A DNA stretch of 64,000 nucleotides from Candidatus Nomurabacteria bacterium (lineage in GTDB: Bacteria > Patescibacteriota > Minisyncoccia > Phycocordibacterales > UBA9973), in the NCBI GenBank assembly GCA_029288725.1, contig JARIGS010000004.1:15132-79131 (forward strand), given 5' to 3'. Under the pieces are notes generated by a model. It was not told the DNA's origin, made no database searches, and saw only the letters and a list, made by a program, of their open reading frames with translations. The position numbers and the translations under genes were made by a program. Below, piece after piece: positions 3,465 to 30,615 of the stretch. Numbering within the stretch: position 1 is the first letter of the stretch; each line of letters begins with the position of its first letter.

Positions 3465-4439
3465 ATGAGAACAATTGAATGTCCAAAACCGCCTGAACAA
3501 AAAAGTTATGAGGCGGACACGATCTATCGCGTACTATCAAAGGATGACCCTATTTTTTACCGCGAAAGAACCGATCGAAACGAAGGGTTTATCGCGCTCA
3601 GTGATCAGCAAATGATTCGAAAAAAAGTCATTGGCGTTGCAGGGTGTGGTGGCATGGGAGGGTTACTTTCAGAAACATTGGTGCGATTGGGTATTGGCGA
3701 GATACATCTTGCCGACCTTGAGCTATTTGATATTTCCAACATTAATCGCCAGCTTTGTAGCACCTCTCTAAGTATTGGCAAACCAAAATTGCCTGAAACC
3801 GCTGAAAGACTTAACATCGTTTCCCCGGATGTTTGTCTCGAGTTGTATCATGAAGGCATTACGAAAAATAACGCATCGTACTTTCTTAGAAATTGCCTAT
3901 TTGGTTTGGATGAAATGGAGTTTTGGGCCCTTGGTTCAAAGATCGCATTTCATGAAGCGGCTCGTAAGCTAGGAATAACCGTGTTTACCGTACCGGTTGT
4001 AGGGCATGGCTTTTACATCTTTAAGTTCACCCCTGGCGGTATGACCATTGAAGAGGTGTTAGGCATGGATTATGAAGAGGCAATGATGTTGCAGATTAAA
4101 ATGCAAACAAGAACCGCAACGCTGAAAGAGGTTCGTAGGGCAATGAATGCGATGTTACGTTTAGTGACACCAGAGGGAATTCCTGAGTACTGCAAGGATA
4201 CTACCAAGCGCAGTACGACCCAAAGAGTGTTGGAAAGACTCGAGATGTACAACACGGCTTCAATTATTGCCACCACTCCTCCCATGGCATCAGGTGCCTT
4301 ATCAAGTGTCTTGTTATTTCACATCATGCAAGAGTCTGAATTTGAAATGAATTATGTATTAACCCCAGAAATGCCGGGGTATCAGATGTTTGACGCTGCT
4401 CGCTGGATAGCAAAGACACACGTAGGAAAATGGTGGTAA
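3465..4439 (+). CDS. ThiF/MoeB/E1-like adenylyltransferase-family protein with a ~130-aa C-terminal extension and no CxxC zinc motif.
   Basis: Nucleotide-binding 'GVAGCGGMGG' and 'LADLELFDISNINRQ' (E1-like D-x-D...NLNRQ block). Confidence 0.8.
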   Translation: MRTIECPKPPEQKSYEADTIYRVLSKDDPIFYRERTDRNEGFIALSDQQMIRKKVIGVAGCGGMGGLLSETLVRLGIGEIHLADLELFDISNINRQLCSTSLSIGKPKLPETAERLNIVSPDVCLELYHEGITKNNASYFLRNCLFGLDEMEFWALGSKIAFHEAARKLGITVFTVPVVGHGFYIFKFTPGGMTIEEVLGMDYEEAMMLQIKMQTRTATLKEVRRAMNAMLRLVTPEGIPEYCKDTTKRSTTQRVLERLEMYNTASIIATTPPMASGALSSVLLFHIMQESEFEMNYVLTPEMPGYQMFDAARWIAKTHVGKWW

Positions 4440-4475
4440 CACAAAAGGTATAAACACACCTAAAAACAAGAAATC

Positions 4476-5090
4476 ATGGAAATTATTGATGTAATCGAAG
4501 AATTGGTTGTTACCGCTTCGGAAGGCGTAATAATCAAATTAGTTACCCCCGTATCTGCTGAGCGAAAAGCTGTTGAAGACTTTGTCTTGGAAGAGTATTA
4601 CCATCGTATGGGTGGCGTGCTTGCCTCTACACCGGAAATTATCTTTGCTGCATTTGAAGAAGGAGTAGTGGTCGGTACGATGGGGTTGGAGTTTCAGGAG
4701 TTGTGTGGATTAATGCCGTGTGAGCACACGTTTGCATTTGATGTTGCGTCGCTCAAGTTTGGTTTGAACCGCAATCGTACCGCACAATATACCCGGCGGA
4801 TTATTAGATCGGACTACAAGGATGGAGCAACGCTTGGCCCGAAACTGATTGCTGCTGTTACTCAATTTGCATTAAGCCAAGGAAAGCTATATGGATTTTG
4901 CGAATTGAAACCCCCACTACTACGGCTAACTTCAAAACTCGGTATCGAATTACATGAAGTAAAAGGTAGTACGATACTGAAAGACAGTGTTCATCCCGAT
5001 GTTGCGAGTTTTTATCTTGTCGAGCCTTATCCAAAGCTCTACCAGATAGAGCTCGTGCAGGTGCTTGAGGCAATAACAAAGAGAAAATAA
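4476..5090 (+). CDS. Hypothetical protein, possibly a GNAT-fold acyltransferase-like (signal-synthase-like topology).
   Basis: 204 aa. 'AAFEEGVVVGTMGL' beta-strand and 'RSDYKDGATLGPKLI...LSQGKLYGFCE' resemble the GNAT core, but no diagnostic motif is certain. Lies between the ThiF-like gene and the histidine kinase with 2-35 nt spacings. Confidence 0.35.
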   Translation: MEIIDVIEELVVTASEGVIIKLVTPVSAERKAVEDFVLEEYYHRMGGVLASTPEIIFAAFEEGVVVGTMGLEFQELCGLMPCEHTFAFDVASLKFGLNRNRTAQYTRRIIRSDYKDGATLGPKLIAAVTQFALSQGKLYGFCELKPPLLRLTSKLGIELHEVKGSTILKDSVHPDVASFYLVEPYPKLYQIELVQVLEAITKRK

Positions 5091-5092
5091 CA

Positions 5093-7135
5093 ATGCGTCG
5101 TAACCCAGGCACGTATGCCTGGGTTATTTTATTAAAACAATCTATAATCCTTATGCCACTTATCACCATGCAATTCGCTATTTTTCAATATATTGCCATT
5201 AGCATCTGCGGCATCTTCATTGCCGCTATTGGCTTGTATGTCCTATATGCCAATGCACGCCGGGCTATAAACCGATGGTTCTGCGTACTGAGCCTTGGCA
5301 TTGCCGCTTGGAACATAGGATTGTCATTGCTGTTCTTCTTTCATGATACGTTTTTTATTACCGTCATTTTGGACGGCGCGATATTGATTGCGGTCGGACT
5401 GTTTTATTTTGGTAAGGTCTTTCCAACAGGAGCGGTGAAAAAGAGGGAATGGTGGTATCTCATTCCGGCAGTTGCCACTGCCATCATGGTGCCGTTCGGT
5501 CTGGTTATTTCCAGCGTTGCAATTACTGCCACTGGATATTTGGCACCGCATAACGAATTTTTATTTCCCGTCTACGGACTTTCGCAGATGGTGTATGCCT
5601 TGGGAGGAGTGCACTTTCTCATACGGAAATACATGTATGCCGAAGGTCAGGCCCGTCAAAAACTGCGCTATTTCTTTTTTGGCATCATCGTACTGGTGTG
5701 TGTTGGCTTGCTCTGTGACGTGATCCTGCCAAGCTTTTCCCTCTATCAATTCAACCTCTTTGGCCCGCTTGCATCACTAGTGCTGGTGGTTGCTACCGCC
5801 TACAGTATCTTGCGCCATAACCTCATGGACATTAGCGTGGTCATTCAGCGCAGTGTCATTTATATCGTACTGCTTAGTGTCATCGTTGCTACTTATGCAT
5901 TTGGCTTGGAACTTGTTGGCTACTTGCTCTCCAAAATCACGAACGTAGCGGTGATTGTCAGTGCCGGGGCAACCATGGTACTCGGCATATTCTTCATGCA
6001 TCCGATTCGCACATACCTGGAGCGGGTGACTGATCCTATTTTCTTCAAGAATAAGTATGTCTATTCGGATGCCATTGCCCGGCTGTCACGCATGCTCAAT
6101 ACAACGATGAGTCAGGCTGACCTTGTTGCGGCGTCTTCGGCGGCATTAGAGGAATTGTTCAAGACATCGCAGGTCGCATTTCTGCTGGCCAACAAGGGTG
6201 AGGAAGCGTTGCCGGCATGGGCTTCCGATATTCGCGTATCACAACCGATTATTTTTGAACATACCGTGATAGGAAAAGTGATACTGGGAAAGAAGCGTTC
6301 CGGGGATGCCTATACTTCCCAGGATATGCAATTGCTTGAAACATTTCTCGACCAGGCTGCCGTGGCATTGGAAAAGGGTCGTCTCTATGAAAAGGTTGAG
6401 GAATACAATACTCAGCTCGAACGCTTGGTCGATGACCGTACCAAGGAAATACAGCATATTCAGGAGGAGCAGAAGCGCATGATGATTGATATTTCTCACA
6501 ACCTGCAAACGCCGCTCGCTATCATTAATAATGACCTTGAAACAATGGCAGACTATTATCCTGATCAGGATAAGATTTTTTCCGTGAAGCGGTCGTTTTT
6601 GCGCGTGTCAGAATTCATCAGGCAATTGCTGCACCTTGCTCGTCTTGATGGGGTGTACGACATCACTCTTACCACATTCGACCTCTCTGAATTTCTCCGA
6701 CAGCAGGTTGAGTATTTTGAGGTGATGGGAAATGAGCAGGATCTTGAGGTTACGGCTGATATCCAGGATGGCGTAGTGTTCACGGGTGACATGCGTCTGC
6801 TCGGCGAGGCATTTACGAACATTGCACAGAACGCCATTAAGTATCGTCGTGAGAATGTGAAAAGCACGCTGCACATTACGCTTCGCGATGATGATACGAC
6901 AGTCACTGTTTCCATTAAGGATAACGGTATGGGAATTGAGGCAAAAGACCTTTCTTCAATCTTCGACCGTTTCTATCGAACGTCCCGCAGTTCCCAGATA
7001 TCAAAAGGGTCAGGGCTCGGTTTGGCCATTGTGAAAAAAATTGTTGATATGCATCATGGCAGCATCGCTGTGCACAGTGTTCTACAGGAAGGAACAGAAT
7101 TTGTACTGACATTTCCCAAGACCATTACTGGCTGA
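5093..7135 (+). CDS. Sensor histidine kinase with a multi-TM N-terminal sensor, a HisKA domain and a HATPase_c domain.
   Basis: At least 7 hydrophobic helices N-terminally. H-box 'DISHNLQTPL'. ATP-lid 'DNGMGIEAKDLSSIFDRFYR...GSGLGLAIV'. Confidence 0.9.
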   Translation: MRRNPGTYAWVILLKQSIILMPLITMQFAIFQYIAISICGIFIAAIGLYVLYANARRAINRWFCVLSLGIAAWNIGLSLLFFFHDTFFITVILDGAILIAVGLFYFGKVFPTGAVKKREWWYLIPAVATAIMVPFGLVISSVAITATGYLAPHNEFLFPVYGLSQMVYALGGVHFLIRKYMYAEGQARQKLRYFFFGIIVLVCVGLLCDVILPSFSLYQFNLFGPLASLVLVVATAYSILRHNLMDISVVIQRSVIYIVLLSVIVATYAFGLELVGYLLSKITNVAVIVSAGATMVLGIFFMHPIRTYLERVTDPIFFKNKYVYSDAIARLSRMLNTTMSQADLVAASSAALEELFKTSQVAFLLANKGEEALPAWASDIRVSQPIIFEHTVIGKVILGKKRSGDAYTSQDMQLLETFLDQAAVALEKGRLYEKVEEYNTQLERLVDDRTKEIQHIQEEQKRMMIDISHNLQTPLAIINNDLETMADYYPDQDKIFSVKRSFLRVSEFIRQLLHLARLDGVYDITLTTFDLSEFLRQQVEYFEVMGNEQDLEVTADIQDGVVFTGDMRLLGEAFTNIAQNAIKYRRENVKSTLHITLRDDDTTVTVSIKDNGMGIEAKDLSSIFDRFYRTSRSSQISKGSGLGLAIVKKIVDMHHGSIAVHSVLQEGTEFVLTFPKTITG

Positions 7136-12718: not shown

Positions 12719-14551
12719 ATGAAATACTCATACAACTGGTTACAATCACATATCGAAGACCCGCTTCCATCACCGGAGGTACTAAAGGAAACAATTATTT
12801 TTCATGCCTTTGAAGTGGAAGATATTGAAGTTATTGATGGCGATACTATTTTTGACATCAAGGTATTGCCTGACCGTGCAGGGGACTGTCTCAGCCACTA
12901 CGGTATGGCCCGAGAAATTGCCGGATTGCTGGACCTGAACTTCAATGACATCCAATACACAACGCCATCAGTGACTGATGAAGTATCAATCGATATTCAG
13001 TCACCGGCATGCCTGCGTTATGCAGCTGTTCGCATAGAAGGGGTACGGGTTGGTCCTTCACCGGAATGGCTAGTGCAGAAATTGGCAGCGGTGGGACAGC
13101 GTTCAATCAATACTGTCGTTGATGCAACCAATTTCATCTTGCTTGATCTTGGACAGCCGACGCATGTATTTGATGCGGAAAAGATTCAGGGCAGCATCGT
13201 TGTTCGTCAGGCTATGGCTGAAGAGAAGATCACTACGCTTGGCAGTGAGGACCCTTCGACAGGCTCAGGGCGTGAAAAAGTTCTGAATGATACGATGATG
13301 GTTATTGCTGATGCGGGAAAACCGCTTGCTATTGCAGGAGTAAAAGGAGGGAATGCAGCGGAAGTGACTGAAGCAACAACTTCTATCATTGCAGAAATTG
13401 CTAATTTTGATGCCGTTAGTGTTCGTAAGACTTCACGCAGTCTTGGATTGGTTACGGATGCGTCCAAAAGATTTGAAAACAATCTCTCACCTCAGGTAGT
13501 GGAAAGTGTGCGGGCAAAATTACTTGGCTTGATCCACTTGCTTGCTGGCGGAACAGTGGTAGCAGCAAGTGACCACTATCCGCATCCACAGACAGAACGA
13601 GCGATTGCATTCAGTCTCCATGATATGCAGCGCATGCTCGGCACTACTATTACCGATGTCAGTATTGTAAAATCCCTTGATCGGTATGGGTACAGTTATG
13701 ATGCCGTGCCGCATCCTGAAGAGGGAACGATGTATACGATGGCAGTGCCGTTGTGGCGTCAGGATATTACTGGCGCACATGACATGGCCGAGGAAATCGG
13801 ACGAGTAATCGGATACGATACTATTCCAAGCAGTCCATTGCCATTTACTCCTACTGTCATTCCTAATGAACAATATGAAAAGATTCGTGCCATCAAATAC
13901 TATCTTTCACAGCAGGGCTATAACGAGGTGATGAACTATACGTTTCGCAAAAAGGGTGACGTGCAGATTGCCTATGGTCCCAAGGATAAGAGCGCATTGC
14001 GCAGCAACTTGAGCGATGCGATGAAGGAAAGTTATGAGATGAACCGCCTCAATGCGCCAGTGCTCGGTCTTGCAGAAGTGAAGCTATTTGAAGTCGGTAC
14101 GGTCTTTGCAGAAAATGGTTCCGCCTCCGCACAAGGCTCTGGCGAGACGAAGGAATCAATGCACGTAGTTATTGCTGACAAAACCGGTATCAAGGAAAGT
14201 ACTGTAGAAGCATTTGAACTTCCTGATGGCATAGTGATCCCTCCGACCACCATCACCCCGAAACCGTTCGTGCCGTGGTCTGTCTATCCATTTATTGTAC
14301 GCGATATCGCAGTGTGGGTGGATGATGCGGCTATGCTGCCCAACTTGGAGGCAATGGTGCAGGACTTTGCTCGTGCGCACTGTGTCCGATCAGCCGTATT
14401 GTTTGATACCTTTACCAAGGAAGGTAAGACTAGTGTGGCCTACCGTCTGGTCTTTCAGTCAAAGGATAAAACCCTGACTGATGGGGAAGTGGAACCACTA
14501 TTTAAAACGCTCGTTGATGCCATTTCTAGCAAGGGAATGACCATTCGCTAA
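12719..14551 (+). CDS. pheT: Phenylalanyl-tRNA synthetase beta subunit (reduced 610-aa form).
   Basis: 'MKYSYNWLQSHI' N-terminus typical of PheT. B3/4 and B5 regions present. Adjacent to pheS. Confidence 0.9.
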   Translation: MKYSYNWLQSHIEDPLPSPEVLKETIIFHAFEVEDIEVIDGDTIFDIKVLPDRAGDCLSHYGMAREIAGLLDLNFNDIQYTTPSVTDEVSIDIQSPACLRYAAVRIEGVRVGPSPEWLVQKLAAVGQRSINTVVDATNFILLDLGQPTHVFDAEKIQGSIVVRQAMAEEKITTLGSEDPSTGSGREKVLNDTMMVIADAGKPLAIAGVKGGNAAEVTEATTSIIAEIANFDAVSVRKTSRSLGLVTDASKRFENNLSPQVVESVRAKLLGLIHLLAGGTVVAASDHYPHPQTERAIAFSLHDMQRMLGTTITDVSIVKSLDRYGYSYDAVPHPEEGTMYTMAVPLWRQDITGAHDMAEEIGRVIGYDTIPSSPLPFTPTVIPNEQYEKIRAIKYYLSQQGYNEVMNYTFRKKGDVQIAYGPKDKSALRSNLSDAMKESYEMNRLNAPVLGLAEVKLFEVGTVFAENGSASAQGSGETKESMHVVIADKTGIKESTVEAFELPDGIVIPPTTITPKPFVPWSVYPFIVRDIAVWVDDAAMLPNLEAMVQDFARAHCVRSAVLFDTFTKEGKTSVAYRLVFQSKDKTLTDGEVEPLFKTLVDAISSKGMTIR

Positions 14552-14581: not shown

Positions 14582-15151
14582 ATGAATACAAAATCAATTA
14601 TCGGCATCATTGTAGTTATCATTATTATTGTGCTTATCGCGGTATGGCTGCATAAGGCACCTGCATCTCCTGCTCAACCTGCTACTCCGGCGGTGACGCA
14701 GACTGATGGTCAGGCCACCCCCATCAATCAGGCTGCTCCTGCCTCAGCACCAGCTCCGGCAAATGGATCCGCCTCCGCACAAGGCTCTGGCGAGACAAGG
14801 AAAATTATCAGTACTAAGACAGTAAACAATATGAAAATTGAAGTAACAAAAGAAGGATCAGGACCAGCTATTACCAACGGACAGACTGCCGTAATGCTCT
14901 ATACCGGCAAGCTCACTGACGGTTCAGTCTTTGATTCAACCGATAAGCACGGTGGTCAGCCATTCTCATTCACCCTTGGTGCTGGTCAGGTTATCAAAGG
15001 ATGGGATGAAGGTATTCTTGGCATGAAGGTAGGTGAGGAACGCACCCTTACCATTCCACCAGAACTAGGCTATGGCGCAAATGGTTTTCCTCCAGTAATC
15101 CCACAGAATGCGACCCTCGTATTTGATGTAACATTAGTAGGAATTAAATAA
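14582..15151 (+). CDS. Membrane-anchored FKBP-type peptidyl-prolyl cis-trans isomerase.
   Basis: N-terminal TM '[18 protein letters not shown]'. FKBP core '[16 protein letters not shown]...[36 protein letters not shown]'. Confidence 0.85.
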
Positions 15152-25681: not shown

Positions 25682-26749
25682 ATGGAAAACGAAAACGATT
25701 TACTAAAAAAAGACCTTGCGGGCCTCGAAAAGAAAGAAGATATTGAAAAATTCATTGATGATGCGGAATTACTTGGTGGAAACGAGGAAGTCATTGCATT
25801 GGCAAAGGAAAAAATTGACGCACTCGAACGTCAGGCAGAATCAGCTACGGTACTCCACGATAATGAAAAAAGCCAAGTGGAATATTTGGGGGGCAGTGGC
25901 ACTGAACTTGAAGAAAAAATAGCGTCAACAAATGAAGCAATAGGAACAATAAAAACGGAGGCTACTGATCAAATCAAGAAGTTGGAAAATCTTTCAGAGG
26001 AAAAATCTTCCCTCGAAAAGGTAGCTGAAATGAAAAGCCTTGATGAGGCGGCTAGTCTGGAAGAAGCTCAGGCATATGTTAAGAAACTTCAGCAGGAATA
26101 TCAGGCAATAGGCGAGAAGGACGTACCAAAGATTAAGGAATTTCTCTCGACTATTACCGAAGATGAAATGCAGAAACTTGTTAAGGAGGGCCCAGATCAG
26201 CAGCGAGATTTAGCGTATGTAAAAGAACAAATTCAAAAAGCATTGCAATCAGAAGGAAAAGAAATAAAAGGAGTTCATTGGGTGAGAGCAGTATCAGCGT
26301 TGAGAAACCTTGATAGAAATTTTTCCGATCAATTGGAGCAAGATGATGACGAGCAAACAGCAAAAAGAAAGGAAGGGTATCGGTTTGAGAACTTTTCTCG
26401 TTCATTAGAACGAATGAAAAAAGAGGGGACCAGTGAGTATATTCAAAATGCAATGAATCCATGGCGATCATGGTCAGGCGCAGATGAAGAAAACGATGCC
26501 GTAGCGCTTGCTCGACAAATGGGCATAATTACACCTGACGAGATTAAAAAAGCCATTACGGAATATTTTGACGCAAGGTTTATAAATAATGAATATCCTA
26601 ATAAGATGCAAAATCTCTTGAGGAGTGCAGAGTATCTCCTTGACCGAGGAAAGCAATTTGGAGAAGTCGAAGTGGTCAAAGAAAACTTAAAAAAGGCAGG
26701 ATTGACCGACATGCAGATTCAGCAGGCGGAAACCAGACAGTACCATTAA
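25682..26749 (+). CDS. Hypothetical acidic coiled-coil protein (355 aa).
   Basis: Long heptad-rich, E/K-rich sequence. Start refined to ATG 25682. Confidence 0.5.
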   Translation: MENENDLLKKDLAGLEKKEDIEKFIDDAELLGGNEEVIALAKEKIDALERQAESATVLHDNEKSQVEYLGGSGTELEEKIASTNEAIGTIKTEATDQIKKLENLSEEKSSLEKVAEMKSLDEAASLEEAQAYVKKLQQEYQAIGEKDVPKIKEFLSTITEDEMQKLVKEGPDQQRDLAYVKEQIQKALQSEGKEIKGVHWVRAVSALRNLDRNFSDQLEQDDDEQTAKRKEGYRFENFSRSLERMKKEGTSEYIQNAMNPWRSWSGADEENDAVALARQMGIITPDEIKKAITEYFDARFINNEYPNKMQNLLRSAEYLLDRGKQFGEVEVVKENLKKAGLTDMQIQQAETRQYH

Positions 26750-26767
26750 AGAAATATTTGACTGCCA

Positions 26768-26796
26768 TTGAAACGTAGTTATTTTTGTGCTACATT
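26768..26796 (+). promoter_or_regulatory. Promoter TTGAAA-N17-TACATT (with upstream TG) driving the ileS leader.
   Basis: Read directly. Positioned about 10 nt before the start of the T-box leader. Confidence 0.4.
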
Positions 26797-26802
26797 TCGA
26801 TT

Positions 26803-27045
26803 AGCAGCGATGAAGAGGCTATCACCTCGGAGCTCTGGGAAGAAAGCCCGCCTACGCATAATGCTACGGCGCGGGAACTAGACCCCAGCGGGCATGCCCG
26901 TTATAGCAGTAATGAAGAATCCGCCTTTGCAAATGCTACGGCGAGATGAGGAACTAAGGTGGTACCGCGACATGAAAATCGCCCTTAGATTATGATGAGT
27001 ATTTCATCGTGATCTCAGGGCGATTTTTTGTTACAACAGGCAATA
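26803..27045 (+). promoter_or_regulatory. T-box riboswitch leader (tRNA-Ile sensing) upstream of ileS.
   Basis: T-box consensus 'AACTAAGGTGGTACCGCGA' at 26952-26969. An intrinsic terminator 'AAAATCGCCCT...TCAGGGCGATTTTTT' (26976-27029) overlaps it, giving the antiterminator/terminator alternative. Candidate specifier 'GCTATCAC' (ATC, Ile codon) at 26821-26823. Start of ileS follows at 27064. Confidence 0.7.
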
Positions 27046-27063
27046 AAATTAATTTACAACTAT

Positions 27064-30000
27064 ATGGAAGAAGACACAAACCCAGCCGTCGCTAAAGCTA
27101 TGGCGAGCAAAGAAAAATCACAACGTGCACAGACCGAGGAGCGGATCCTCGCATTTTGGCAGCAGGAACATATTTTTGAAAAGACCTTGGAAAAGGATGC
27201 CCCAAAGGGGGAGTATATTTTTTATGAAGGACCACCGACTGCCAATGCCAAGCCGGCATTGCACCACCTGGAGTCTCGCGCATTCAAGGACGTTATTCCT
27301 CGATACAAGACCATGCAGGGGTATCGTGTGCCGCGTCGTGCCGGATGGGATACGCACGGTTTGCCAGTAGAATTGCAGATTGAAAAGAAATTGGGTCTTA
27401 CTTCCAAGAAAGAGATCGAGGCGTATGGTGTCGCACAGTTCAATAAGGAATGTAAGGATAGTGTTTTCACCTACATCAAGGACTGGGAAGACTTTACCGA
27501 CCGCATCGGTTACTGGGTTGATAAGAAAAGCGCGTACTATACGTTTGATACGAATTACATTGAATCAGTCTGGCATATCTTGTCGACCGTAAACAACAAG
27601 GGCCTTGTCTACAAAGACTTCAAGGTCCTGCCGTGGTGCCCACGTTGCGGTACAGCGCTCTCAAGTCATGAATTGGCACAGCCAGGCGCATATATGGACG
27701 TGAAGGATTTGTCAGTGACAGCAAAGTTTAAAGTTGTTGGACAGGATAATACCTACATCCTCGCTTGGACTACTACACCGTGGACATTGCCAGGGAATGT
27801 CGGTTTAGCTGTTGGGGCGGATATTGATTATGTTGCAGTAGAAAAAGATGGAGAAACGCTGATCCTTGCAAAGGAGCGTATGGAAGTGCTCGGCGGCGAC
27901 CTTACGGTGATAAAAGAAATGAAAGGCAAAGATCTTGTTGGCCTTTCCTATGAACCGCTTTATCCATATCTTGCGAATCTTATCGCTGGTGACGAAGCAA
28001 AGAAAATGGATGCAGCATATAAGGTCTATCCAGCAGATTTCGTTACTACCACTGATGGTACCGGTATCGTACACACAGCCGTAATGTATGGTGCTGATGA
28101 CTTTGATTTGGGAACGGCAGTTGGTTTGCCAAAGTTTCATACCGTTGATGATACAGGGCATTTCATTGCCGGTACTGATTTTCTTGGGGGGCGATTTGTG
28201 AAGGATGAGGAAGTGGCTGTCGATATCATTAAAGACCTTGCGCATCGGGGATTGCTGTTCAAGAAGGAAAAATATGAGCACTCTTATCCGCATTGCTGGC
28301 GTTGTAAGACTCCATTGCTCTACTATGCCCGTGATTCATGGTACATCGCGATGTCAAAAATGCGTGATGAGCTAGTAAAGGAAAACGAGACCATCAACTG
28401 GGAACCGGCTCACATCAAGCAGGGGCGCTTTGGCGAATGGCTGAAGGACCTTAAGGATTGGGCGATTTCTCGTGAACGATACTGGGGTACGCCATTGCCG
28501 ATTTGGCAGGCAGCCGATGGTGAGCGACTATTTGTTGATTCCGTTGCAACATTGAAGCAATACATCAAGAAGTCAGGCAATACGTACTTCATCATGCGCC
28601 ATGGCCAGACTGAGCACAACCTCAAAGGATTGTGGAATTTCGGTGACACCACTGATCCGTTGACTGATGCAGGAAGGGAGCAGGTAGTGGCAAGCGCCGC
28701 TATGTTGAAGGATAAAAAGATTGACCTGATCATCACTTCACCGTTTGCCCGTACGCTGGAAACGGCAACACTGGTAGCGGCACGAATTGGATTGACTGAG
28801 GAAAATATCATTACCGATAGTCGCATCGGTGAGTGGAATGTCGGCGCAGCATTTGATGGCAAACCAATGGATGAGTTCTTTGCTATTCGCAATGCTCAGG
28901 CTGATCGATATGGGTTCAAAACCGAAGATGGTGAATCCTATGCTGACCTTATCAAGCGGGCAGGGGATTTTCTCTACGATATTGAAAAAAAATATGAAGG
29001 CAAAACAATTCTGATTGTCTCTCATGGTGGCGTTGATCGTGCGATGGATCTGATCTCGCAGGGTCTTTCAATGAGAAATCTGTTTGAACAGAGTCGCGCG
29101 TATCAGAACTTTGCCAATGCCGAAGTGCGGCAGATTGATTTTGCTCCCATGCCGCACAATGAACAATATGAGCTTGATCTGCACCGCCCGTTTATTGATG
29201 ACGTTGTGCTGGTCAAACCGGCAACTGACATGTCAGGAGAGGCAAGGGAATTCAGACGCGTGAAGGAAGTGATGGATGTCTGGTTTGACTCAGGGTCAAT
29301 GCCATTTGCACAGGATCATTATCCCTTCGGGCTACGCCCTCAGGGTCTGACGACCCATACAACCCAAGAACTTGCGTATCCGGCGGACTTTATCTCAGAA
29401 GCGATTGATCAGACCCGTGGATGGTTCTACACCTTGCATGCTATTGGAACATTGATGGGTCGTGGCAAGGCGTATAAAAACGTTATTTGTCTTGGTCATA
29501 TCCTTGATGCCGAAGGCAAGAAAATGTCGAAGTCCATCGGTAACATCGTTGATCCGTGGCAGGAAATGGGCCGTTTCGGTGTCGATACGTTGCGTTTGTG
29601 GATGTACTCAGTTAATCAGCCGGGGGATTCAAAAAACTATGACCCAAAGACCGTGATGGAAATGGAGCGTCAGACATTTGGCCTGCTGTATAACGTCCTT
29701 TCATTTTATGAACTCTATCGTGATACAGAGTTAGAGGTTCAATCTCTCAGTGAATCAACCAACGTATTGGATCAGTGGATCATTGCTCGTCTCAATATTT
29801 TGATCATCATCTGTACTGATGGTTTAGATCATTACAAAACGATGGAACCAGTACGAGCGATTCGTGATTTCATTGGTGACCTTTCAACGTGGTATGTGCG
29901 TCGATCGCGTGAGCGATTGAAGGGAGAAGGTCGCGTTTTAATGGACGGTACGCGACACGATTCCGCAGAATCGGCTAAAGCGACTCTGTACCATATTCTT

Positions 30001-30615
30001 AAAACACTTGCTCAATTACTTGCGCCATTTGCGCCATTCGCGGCAGAGGATATATGGGGTCACTTAAAACATTCTTCTGATACAGTATCGGTCCACCTAT
30101 CATCATGGCCTACGGTTGTACCTACTTCTATAGATGGAGTAATACTATTGGAAAACATGATCACTGTCCGTAGCATCTGTACAATTGGTAACGCCCTTCG
30201 TAAGAAACTGGCAATTCCAGTTCGTCAGCCATTGCAGTCTATTACCGTGAAAGGTGAGGCATTGCCTCAAGAGTATGTGGCATTGATCATGGATGAATTG
30301 AATGTGAAGGAAGTAGTGTTTAATACCGACCTAGAAACTGAAGCCGAGCTTGATACTACTATCACACCCGCTCTCAAAGCCGAGGGTGACTATCGTGAAC
30401 TTGTGCGTGCAGTACAGGACTTGCGCAAGACAAAAGGCTTAACACCGAGTGATGAGATTACCATCACGCTTAGCCCTGCCGGAGAATCATTGCTCACACC
30501 GTTCATGGAGGATTTCAAAAAAACCGTCCTTGCAACCGAGGTGAATTTTGCAGAAAATGAGGGGGAAGCAATTACGATCGGAGATCGGACTATGGAAATA
30601 ATCCTTACGGCATAA
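27064..30615 (+). CDS. ileS: Isoleucyl-tRNA synthetase (type-2/T. thermophilus-like), unusually long at 1183 aa because of an inserted ~200-aa histidine-phosphatase (PGAM-like) domain. The HIGH motif is degenerate.
   Basis: 'FYEGPPTANAKPALHH' (HIGH position reads ALHH), CP1 editing region, 'WCPRCGT', 'RERYWGTPLPIW', 'DVWFDSGSMPF', 'KKMSKSIGN'. Start refined to ATG 27064. Confidence 0.9.
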   Translation: MEEDTNPAVAKAMASKEKSQRAQTEERILAFWQQEHIFEKTLEKDAPKGEYIFYEGPPTANAKPALHHLESRAFKDVIPRYKTMQGYRVPRRAGWDTHGLPVELQIEKKLGLTSKKEIEAYGVAQFNKECKDSVFTYIKDWEDFTDRIGYWVDKKSAYYTFDTNYIESVWHILSTVNNKGLVYKDFKVLPWCPRCGTALSSHELAQPGAYMDVKDLSVTAKFKVVGQDNTYILAWTTTPWTLPGNVGLAVGADIDYVAVEKDGETLILAKERMEVLGGDLTVIKEMKGKDLVGLSYEPLYPYLANLIAGDEAKKMDAAYKVYPADFVTTTDGTGIVHTAVMYGADDFDLGTAVGLPKFHTVDDTGHFIAGTDFLGGRFVKDEEVAVDIIKDLAHRGLLFKKEKYEHSYPHCWRCKTPLLYYARDSWYIAMSKMRDELVKENETINWEPAHIKQGRFGEWLKDLKDWAISRERYWGTPLPIWQAADGERLFVDSVATLKQYIKKSGNTYFIMRHGQTEHNLKGLWNFGDTTDPLTDAGREQVVASAAMLKDKKIDLIITSPFARTLETATLVAARIGLTEENIITDSRIGEWNVGAAFDGKPMDEFFAIRNAQADRYGFKTEDGESYADLIKRAGDFLYDIEKKYEGKTILIVSHGGVDRAMDLISQGLSMRNLFEQSRAYQNFANAEVRQIDFAPMPHNEQYELDLHRPFIDDVVLVKPATDMSGEAREFRRVKEVMDVWFDSGSMPFAQDHYPFGLRPQGLTTHTTQELAYPADFISEAIDQTRGWFYTLHAIGTLMGRGKAYKNVICLGHILDAEGKKMSKSIGNIVDPWQEMGRFGVDTLRLWMYSVNQPGDSKNYDPKTVMEMERQTFGLLYNVLSFYELYRDTELEVQSLSESTNVLDQWIIARLNILIIICTDGLDHYKTMEPVRAIRDFIGDLSTWYVRRSRERLKGEGRVLMDGTRHDSAESAKATLYHILKTLAQLLAPFAPFAAEDIWGHLKHSSDTVSVHLSSWPTVVPTSIDGVILLENMITVRSICTIGNALRKKLAIPVRQPLQSITVKGEALPQEYVALIMDELNVKEVVFNTDLETEAELDTTITPALKAEGDYRELVRAVQDLRKTKGLTPSDEITITLSPAGESLLTPFMEDFKKTVLATEVNFAENEGEAITIGDRTMEIILTA
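28561..29163 (+). other. Histidine-phosphatase superfamily (phosphoglycerate-mutase-like) domain inserted in-frame inside ileS.
   Basis: Branch-1 signature 'FIMRHGQTEHN' (RHGxT) and second catalytic-His motif 'ILIVSHGGVDRAM'. Flanked by the conserved IleS blocks 'WGTPLPIW' upstream and 'DLHRPFIDD...DVWFDSGS' downstream. Confidence 0.75.

Follow-up and report, generated by a model that had tools for sequence, protein, structure and literature searches.

Can a leader RNA that lacks the elbow-binding part of a T-box riboswitch still sense a tRNA and switch the transcription of the gene downstream? This question is raised by the sequence in front of ileS, the isoleucyl-tRNA synthetase gene, in a 64,000-nucleotide stretch of contig JARIGS010000004.1 from a Candidatus Nomurabacteria bacterium; the whole of this 64-kb stretch is referred to as the window. 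An earlier interpretation made from the letters of the DNA (the sequence-only reading) had proposed a tRNA-Ile T-box leader at this site. Our analysis upholds the proposal through a significant full-length match to a covariance model, conservation with compensatory changes, three-way covariation and the presence of ileS downstream. We conclude that the leader is very probably a T-box riboswitch, one that responds to whether tRNA-Ile is charged and regulates ileS through transcription attenuation. The best homologues of the encoded synthetase (IleRS) are named Candidatus Paceibacterota, Nomurabacteria and Minisyncoccia; on sequence grounds, the host is a Paceibacteria-type bacterium of the candidate phyla radiation (CPR), or Patescibacteria.

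The T-box leader upstream of ileS

The locus comprises the following features, for which counts of leaders refer to an alignment of 13 sequences described in the next section.

26768-26796, + strand: predicted promoter, with -35 box TTGAAA (26768-26773), a 17-nt spacer and the TG-extended -10 box TGcTACATT (26788-26796)
26803-27029, + strand: T-box leader, upstream of ileS (27064-30615)
26807-26833, + strand: ultrashort Stem I, placed by the RF00230 alignment; its helix pairs in 13/13 sequences
26821-26824, + strand: specifier AUC with the 3' purine A26824; AUC-A is unchanged in 12/12 ileS leaders
26835-26888, + strand: Stem II, with base helix CUGGG/CCCAG and S-turn-like strands GAAGAA (5') and ACUAGA (3')
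26846-26875, + strand: insertion at the tip of Stem II, a hairpin of about 30 nt, GCCCGCC-UAC-GCAUAAUGC-UAC-GGCGCGGG, containing copy 1 of a 12-mer repeat
26889-26903, + strand: Stem IIA hairpin CGGG-CAUG-CCCG and F-box CCGUUA, placed by the RF00230 alignment with high posterior probability
26921-26943, + strand: Stem III hairpin, CCGCC-UUU-GCAAAUGC-UAC-GGCG, containing copy 2 of the repeat and present in minimum free energy folds
26952-26970, + strand: T-box sequence AACUAAGGUGGUACCGCGA, with the 7-nt bulge UGGUACC at 26960-26966; top posterior probability against the Rfam consensus
26955-26987, + strand: antiterminator, with helices UAAGG/CCUUA and GCGA/UCGC flanking the bulge
26975-27029, + strand: predicted intrinsic terminator, an interrupted hairpin of about 24 bp (26975-27027) with a T-run to 27029 (U6)
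27064-30615, + strand: ileS, 1183 amino acids; TIGR00392 at 856 bits, Pfam domains tRNA-synt_1, Anticodon_1 and DUF5915

When the 421-nt stretch 26700-27120 was searched with permissive filters, the Rfam T-box model RF00230 aligned to the leader from its first to its last position (47.3 bits, E 1.9e-9), a full-length match that stays below the curated gathering score of 93. The shortfall arises because distal Stem I is missing: only 6 nt stand in place of 76 model positions, which comprise the specifier internal loop, the AG bulge and the distal loop of the interdigitated T-loop platform. The alignment also takes in the F-box CCGUUA, the IIA hairpin, Stem III and the bulge UGGUACC of the T-box. 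Furthermore, a model of our own built from the 13 related leaders has exactly one strong site in the window, the ileS leader at 128 bits. Since the window leader is included in that model, the result speaks for a single such site in the window and is not an independent detection.

A plausible Stem I and specifier architecture is present in the form of an ultrashort Stem I. More specifically, a base helix GC/GC (26807-08 with 26832-33), unchanged in 13/13 leaders, is followed by a putative kink-turn (K-turn)/GA motif, GAUGAA (26809-14) opposite GGA (26829-31), aligned to RF00230 with high posterior probability, and by a 4-bp helix GAGG/CCUC (26815-18 with 26825-28). The helix exchanges bases at two pairs among the 13 sequences (AU/GC/CG and GC/AU/UA). 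Its apical loop of 6 nt, CUAUCA (26819-24), carries the Ile codon AUC. The sequence-only reading had recognized this AUC and the purine after it within GCTATCAC (26818-26825, with AUC at 26821-26823 followed by A26824) and had described their context as specifier-loop-like; they lie in the apical loop and not in an internal specifier loop of a long Stem I. In the RF00230 alignment, the elbow-binding platform of distal Stem I (AG bulge and distal loop) is absent from the leader. The missing platform excludes the canonical class I architecture and is the defining trait of the ultrashort subclass.

At the 3' side of the leader, the T-box 19-mer AACTAAGGTGGTACCGCGA is found as originally described, with its end corrected from 26969 to 26970. 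Its GGUGG-ACC-CG core is unchanged in 13/13 leaders, and the UGGU of the bulge (26960-26963) is expected, by analogy with known T-boxes, to pair with the ACCA at the 3' end of the tRNA. The terminator proposed from the sequence is also present and folds at -32.2 kcal/mol in the full leader; relative to the 26976-27029 first assigned to it, its coordinates are shifted, the stem spanning 26975-27027 and the T-run ending at 27029. A simple terminator scan gave no terminator at the leader because the stem is long and interrupted. Strand 26979-26987 is common to the 5' arm of the terminator and the 3' strand of the antiterminator. Once the terminator 3' arm is excluded from the fold the antiterminator forms, at -4.9 kcal/mol, and the two structures thereby behave as alternative folds, in agreement with the initial proposal.

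Upstream of these structures, a promoter consensus scan confirmed the candidate promoter TTGAAA-N17-TACATT at 26768-26796, with 9/12 matches plus the TG extension. Most related leaders have a TGnTAnAnT-like box at the same distance (about 10 nt) 5' of the K-turn GCG.

Conservation and covariation in related leaders

Relatives were gathered from contigs encoding close IleRS homologues and from metagenome contigs scanned by a pattern that leaves the Stem I helix and loop free. Twelve more leaders built on the same plan were obtained in this way from CPR contigs, of which eleven precede ileS and one an aspS operon. The eleven ileS leaders (L082, L084, L087, L093, L098 and L112-L117) are distinct, and all have AUC-A in the apical loop, a UGGU bulge and a terminator. 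No change is seen in AUC-A, the UGGU bulge or the T-box core across lineages whose IleRS proteins are only about 60-80% identical. The upstream gene varies between relatives, so the leader travels with ileS. The CPR ileS loci L001-L014, which are more distant, gave neither a T-box core in a regular-expression search nor a match to the leader model R1; the leader is confined to a subclade with an IleRS at least about 60% identical to that of the window. The Rfam gathering threshold misses all 12 related CPR leaders and detects 5/8 ileS leaders from other phyla. As a separate observation, in L117 (1093-1500) about 270 nt separate the T-box and terminator from the ileS downstream of them, and a 62-amino-acid open reading frame (ORF) is called on the opposite strand in this interval; the gap is 12-45 nt in the other leaders.

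For the covariation analysis, the T-box structure was written onto an alignment of 13 leaders, that is the twelve ileS leaders including that of the window, and the aspS leader L096. Standard pairs form in 96.2% of cells, versus 27-54% after a shift of the 3' partners by 1-3 columns (slid controls), a contrast inflated by the fact that the tested structure was derived from the same 13 sequences. Changes on both sides are seen at 11/24 pairs, and 0/500 column shuffles equal the alignment on even one of the five measures. RNAalifold, run as an independent check, recovered Stem I, the base of Stem II and the bulged antiterminator de novo.

The switching region was compared in the same way. Eight of the nine antiterminator pairs form in 13/13 leaders and the ninth in 11/13, with double changes between U-A and C-G and between G-C and A-U. 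Every leader (13/13) has a hairpin of -20 to -32 kcal/mol directly followed by 4-8 U. The strongest single result is a three-way covariation: the base 3' of ACC in the T-box strand, the shared-strand base that it pairs with, and the base paired with the latter in the terminator 3' arm read G-C-G in 6 leaders, A-U-A in 6 and A-U-G in 1; a second three-way position alternates between U-A-U and C-G-C. Selection thus acts on the shared strand to keep it paired in either conformer.

The modules between Stem I and the T-box are less uniform. The base helix of Stem II covaries (CG/UA/GU and UA/CG/AU), and its S-turn-like strands are so called for their resemblance to the motif in PMC7583486 and PMC7778990. 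Stem IIA and the F-box occur in 10/13 leaders, being absent from L098, L117 and L096. Stem III, which in the window is directly followed on its 3' side by a purine-rich linker (26944-26954), varies among the relatives and is missing from L087, L112 and L113.

The sequence-only reading had pointed to a tandem repeat, AATGCTACGGCG, as an unexplained part of the leader, with copies starting at 26859 and 26933. There are exactly two copies, at 26860-26871 and 26932-26943, which are dispersed (72 nt apart) and not in tandem. They now have an explanation: the insertion in Stem II (26846-26875) is a near-duplicate of the window's Stem III, and the 12-mer is the 3' arm of each hairpin. The insertion is lineage-specific and is missing from L082, L084, L087, L112 and L113. 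In L114, an analogous Stem II insertion, unlike that of the window in sequence, resembles that leader's own Stem III (27 nt, 81% identity, 75-nt spacing). The hairpins of the window and L114 and Stem III of L116 have a common design, in which a small pyrimidine-rich internal loop joins a CGCC/GGCG-type helix to another, short helix. The copies may be independent duplications or may be kept alike by binding the same partner. In the ileS T-box of Mycobacterium smegmatis, a Stem III with 11 additional bp binds tRNA about six-fold tighter (2023 preprint, bioRxiv 10.1101/2023.02.28.530422). By analogy with this result, the duplicated hairpins may plausibly have a stabilizing role.

A dispersed repeat element was considered as the source of the 12-mer and rejected, the hairpin pattern occurring nowhere else in the window except in an unrelated coding repeat. 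The leader contains a second internal similarity, between TAGCAGCGATGAAGA at the start of Stem I (26802-26816) and TAGCAGTAATGAAGA in the linker after the F-box (26904-26918), which are 87% identical; the linker form AGCNGUAAUGA(A)G is kept in most relatives.

The leader with a different specifier provides a further line of evidence. L096 (3729-3910, - strand; identical in L102) is a terminator-type leader with an ultrashort Stem I, AAC (Asn) in the apical loop and a UGGC bulge. It heads an operon encoding a C39-like peptidase, an HD-domain protein and aspS (NF001750, 622 bits), the aspartyl-tRNA synthetase (AspRS) being of the Paceibacteria type. UGGU is found with AUC and UGGC with AAC, a pattern consistent with a variable bulge base that would pair with the discriminator base 73 of the tRNA; bacterial tRNA-Ile has A73 and tRNA-Asn has G73. 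Loop codon, bulge base and regulated gene thus switch together (AUC/UGGU/ileS versus AAC/UGGC/aspS operon), which supports the apical loop as the specifier. An Asn-sensing leader in front of aspS would make sense if the AspRS were non-discriminating and the organism lacked asnS.

One more candidate was observed at L107 (1177-1336), where the loop of a short Stem I carries GAC (Asp) and the bulge reads UGGC (65.7 bits with R1). It lies just 3' of a tRNA-His gene and before a response-regulator gene, and has no recognizable antiterminator 3' strand or terminator. Either decay of a T-box or the use of another platform may account for these features.

Mode of control and competing explanations

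The events expected at the leader can be laid out from these structures. From a transcription start that would lie near 26803, the ultrashort Stem I would emerge and offer its apical AUC (26821-26823) to the GAU anticodon of tRNA-Ile, a contact that the Stem II S-turn and the IIA/F-box would support. If the tRNA is uncharged, its 3' ACCA would pair with UGGU (26960-26963) and stabilize the weak antiterminator (26955-26987), and the polymerase would read into ileS. With charged tRNA or none, strand 26979-26987 would join the stronger terminator (26975-27027) and transcription would stop in the U-tract at about 27030. The leader would in this way recognize tRNA like the ultrashort class and switch like the classical transcriptional class, a mechanism well supported by comparative evidence. 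For tRNA binding, aminoacyl discrimination and actual termination, we infer the behaviour of the leader from the established T-box mechanism (reviewed in PMC7583486).

Several observations weigh against this account, in addition to the inflated contrast with slid controls noted above. Foremost, the elbow-binding distal Stem I, held to be essential for transcriptional T-boxes (PMC7583486), is absent, which leaves fast co-transcriptional tRNA capture unexplained. The RF00230 score is only about half the gathering score. The 3' strand of the S-turn has C in the window (ACUAGA) where most relatives have G (AGUAGA), and a candidate IIB pairing, between X-G of the IIA loop and C-Y after the F-box, is 78% paired, close to the 68-70% of slid controls. 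The 64-kb window contains no tRNA gene, and a tRNA-Ile gene was found neither there nor in 18 related loci. Finally, the leader is dispensable in the clade, since among the 13 IleRS lineages sampled (the window included) 10 have the leader and three close relatives are without it: P0002, with a 3-nt gap to the upstream gene, L004, and P0010, judged from a 29-nt gap.

The absent platform bears most directly on the level of control. According to a 2020 review, T-boxes that act on transcription generally need a long Stem I that bears the elbow-binding platform, short and ultrashort Stem I being features of translational T-boxes, mostly in Actinobacteria (PMC7583486), and the ultrashort form is described as a translational class (bioRxiv 10.1101/2023.02.28.530422; PMC7583486; PMC1262725). 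Sequestration of the Shine-Dalgarno (SD) sequence is the mechanism described for the actinobacterial ileS T-boxes (PMC1262725, PMC7583486). On this precedent, the leader could be a translational T-box in which the 3' hairpin is a sequestrator that blocks access of the ribosome, and slow, reversible binding without elbow contact would indeed fit translational control better. The 3' end of the leader makes this very improbable. The hairpin covers neither an SD nor the start codon: ileS starts 35 nt past the U-tract, after A/U-rich sequence without SD, and in relatives the start codon lies 12-45 nt past the U-tract and outside the hairpin, again after A/U-rich sequence with no GGAGG-like motif. 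The protein start is supported by the MEE/MED beginning kept in relatives. The window as a whole also appears to make no use of SD sequences, bearing out an earlier remark that the genome is SD-poor: an SD-core 4-mer occurs at -18 to -4 in 3/47 long ORFs, versus 6/47 and 4/47 at control positions. With no SD before ileS, in a window poor in SD sequences, SD sequestration has nothing to act on. Moreover, the run of 4-8 U behind the hairpin in 13/13 leaders would be needless for a sequestrator. The conserved U-tract and the lack of an SD therefore argue for transcription attenuation rather than SD sequestration.

In a separate observation on the window's genes, a TAnAnT -10-like box ends 4-10 nt 5' of the ATG in 10/47 genes, compared to 1-5/47 at other offsets; boxes this close to the ATG suggest that leaderless mRNAs are frequent.

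Alternatively, the element may be a decayed or repurposed T-box that no longer responds to tRNA and serves as a constitutive attenuator, as a stability element, or as a sensor of another factor through the extra hairpins. The losses and variations described above, namely the missing distal Stem I, the C at the S-turn G position, the patchy occurrence of Stem III (L087, L112, L113) and of IIA/F-box (L098, L117, L096), the close relatives that lost the leader entirely and the apparent disruption of the 3' platform in L107, would fit such decay. What they leave intact is difficult to reconcile with it: AUC-A, the UGGU bulge and the T-box core do not change across IleRS proteins about 60-80% identical, compensatory changes keep both conformers, and in the Asn leader a change of specifier is matched by a change of bulge base. 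A relic would not be expected to show such purifying selection, and we regard loss of tRNA sensing as very improbable.

A chance T-box-like sequence beside an ordinary terminator, in keeping with the default Rfam scan of the whole 64-kb window, which reported no T-box, is refuted by the RF00230 match at E 1.9e-9 over the full model, by conservation and covariation in 13 lineages, and by a position always upstream of the cognate aminoacyl-tRNA synthetase gene.

Relation to known T-boxes and further observations

The closest described systems are the ultrashort-Stem-I ileS T-boxes of Actinobacteria, known from Mycobacterium tuberculosis, M. smegmatis and Nocardia farcinica (PDB 6UFG, 6UFH, 6UFM; PMC7583486, PMC12990946). 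Like these, the window leader has a short hairpin above a K-turn, an apical AUC and no elbow-binding platform; it also has in common with them a Stem II with S-turn-like strands, the IIA/F-box, Stem III, the T-box bulge, the ileS target and a predicted specificity for tRNA-Ile. In contrast, its expression platform is a -32 kcal/mol hairpin with a U-tract, 35 nt before an SD-less start, whereas theirs is an SD-sequestering helix (PMC1262725). It further differs, in a comparison made by description only, in its CPR host and in the extra hairpin at the Stem II tip that duplicates Stem III. With canonical class I T-boxes, such as those of Bacillus subtilis tyrS and glyQS, the leader shares the basal K-turn, the T-box, an antiterminator with a 7-nt bulge opposed to a terminator, and a cognate aminoacyl-tRNA synthetase; it departs from them in the loss of distal Stem I (76 positions to 6 nt) that keeps it below the gathering score.

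Among other phyla, Chloroflexi and Clostridia have long-Stem-I ileS T-boxes (L018, L020, L024, L026, L038, L044, L051, L065, L070, L078) with the same type of IleRS downstream and the same arrangement of terminator and U-tract. On its 3' side, their Stem I (AUCAC-YCC-GGAGCU) differs very little from the CPR sequence AUCACCUCGGAGCU, from which we infer that the CPR form could have arisen by deletion of distal Stem I. Unlike the CPR leaders, they keep a full long Stem I with platform motifs, and several have a clear GGAGG before the start codon. That these leaders might themselves combine a short Stem I with a terminator was ruled out, as five reach the Rfam gathering score (97-127 bits) and folding of 150 nt upstream shows a canonical long Stem I in the rest. 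Effectively, among all leaders retrieved, an ultrashort Stem I together with a terminator is found only in CPR leaders.

The ultrashort class is described as restricted to ileS, and the short-Stem-I model of TBDB was run only on Actinobacteria and truncated class I matches (PMC7778990). In the literature searched, we found no mention of T-boxes together with CPR, Patescibacteria or Parcubacteria. The pairing of an ultrashort Stem I with a transcription terminator was not described in that literature either, and is taken there not to occur; the literature searched excluded the primary actinobacterial survey. The abstract of Sherwood et al. 2015 reportedly calls "many", not all, of the atypical actinobacterial leaders translational, and earlier examples of a short Stem I joined to a terminator may therefore exist.

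A broader reading of these results is possible, and we advance it tentatively. Paceibacteria-type CPR bacteria may carry a distinct, unannotated class of T-box that combines an ultrashort Stem I with a terminator, is not limited to ileS (AAC/UGGC before aspS), is invisible to Rfam at the gathering score and contradicts the rule of the elbow platform. In this class, the recurrent duplication of Stem III into the Stem II tip (window and L114) could provide a substitute tRNA contact, or a stabilizer through which capture would be fast enough during transcription.

Assignment to the T-box family is in itself ordinary, as these riboswitches are well understood. With respect to host range, the leaders place T-box regulation in the CPR/Patescibacteria, where routine annotation overlooks them: neither the window leader nor any of the 12 related ones reaches the gathering score. 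A reduced and probably host-dependent bacterium would then still monitor the charging of individual tRNAs. The current dichotomy, long Stem I for transcriptional and short for translational control, is argued from fast capture through elbow contact; a terminator-type T-box without elbow contact, in an organism that does not use SD sequences, would be a natural test of that argument. At about 185 nt, it would also offer a compact transcriptional tRNA sensor for engineering.

Among the retrieved loci were T-box leaders before ileS in metagenome-assembled genomes labelled Gammaproteobacteria, Woeseiaceae and Chromatiales (binning as labelled), namely L022 (2182-2412), L034 (about 2301-2400) and L052 (about 2300-2410). 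The L022 leader reaches the Rfam gathering score, at 98.8 bits. To our knowledge, T-boxes have rarely been reported in Proteobacteria.

The ileS product has an unusual feature of its own. A histidine-phosphatase domain (PF00300, PhoE/CobC-like) is inserted inside the catalytic domain of the window's IleRS (28561-29178, residues about 500-705), between the WGTPLPIW and DVWFDSGS motifs. Its RHG, second Arg, Glu and second His are unchanged in 26 aligned homologues, and its closest solved relatives are the PhoE-type phosphatases 1EBB/1H2E. The insertion is present in 120/120 best IleRS homologues; among 80 ileS loci from many phyla, it occurs in 15/15 of the CPR type and 0/65 of the others. No link between IleRS and a histidine phosphatase was found in the literature searched. 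In the IleRS gene of L061 (Candidatus Peribacteria, 3989-5197), the insertion is matched twice by tblastn, at separate places, which suggests that the inserted domain is tandemly duplicated there. L012, labelled uncultured Gammaproteobacteria, encodes a CPR-type IleRS with the insertion, and this contig may be mis-binned.

Elsewhere in the window, a 43-nt direct repeat (14113-14155 and 14761-14803; 91% identical, with a 29-nt exact core) lies in the adjacent ORFs 12719-14551 and 14582-15151 and is probably a shared coding motif.

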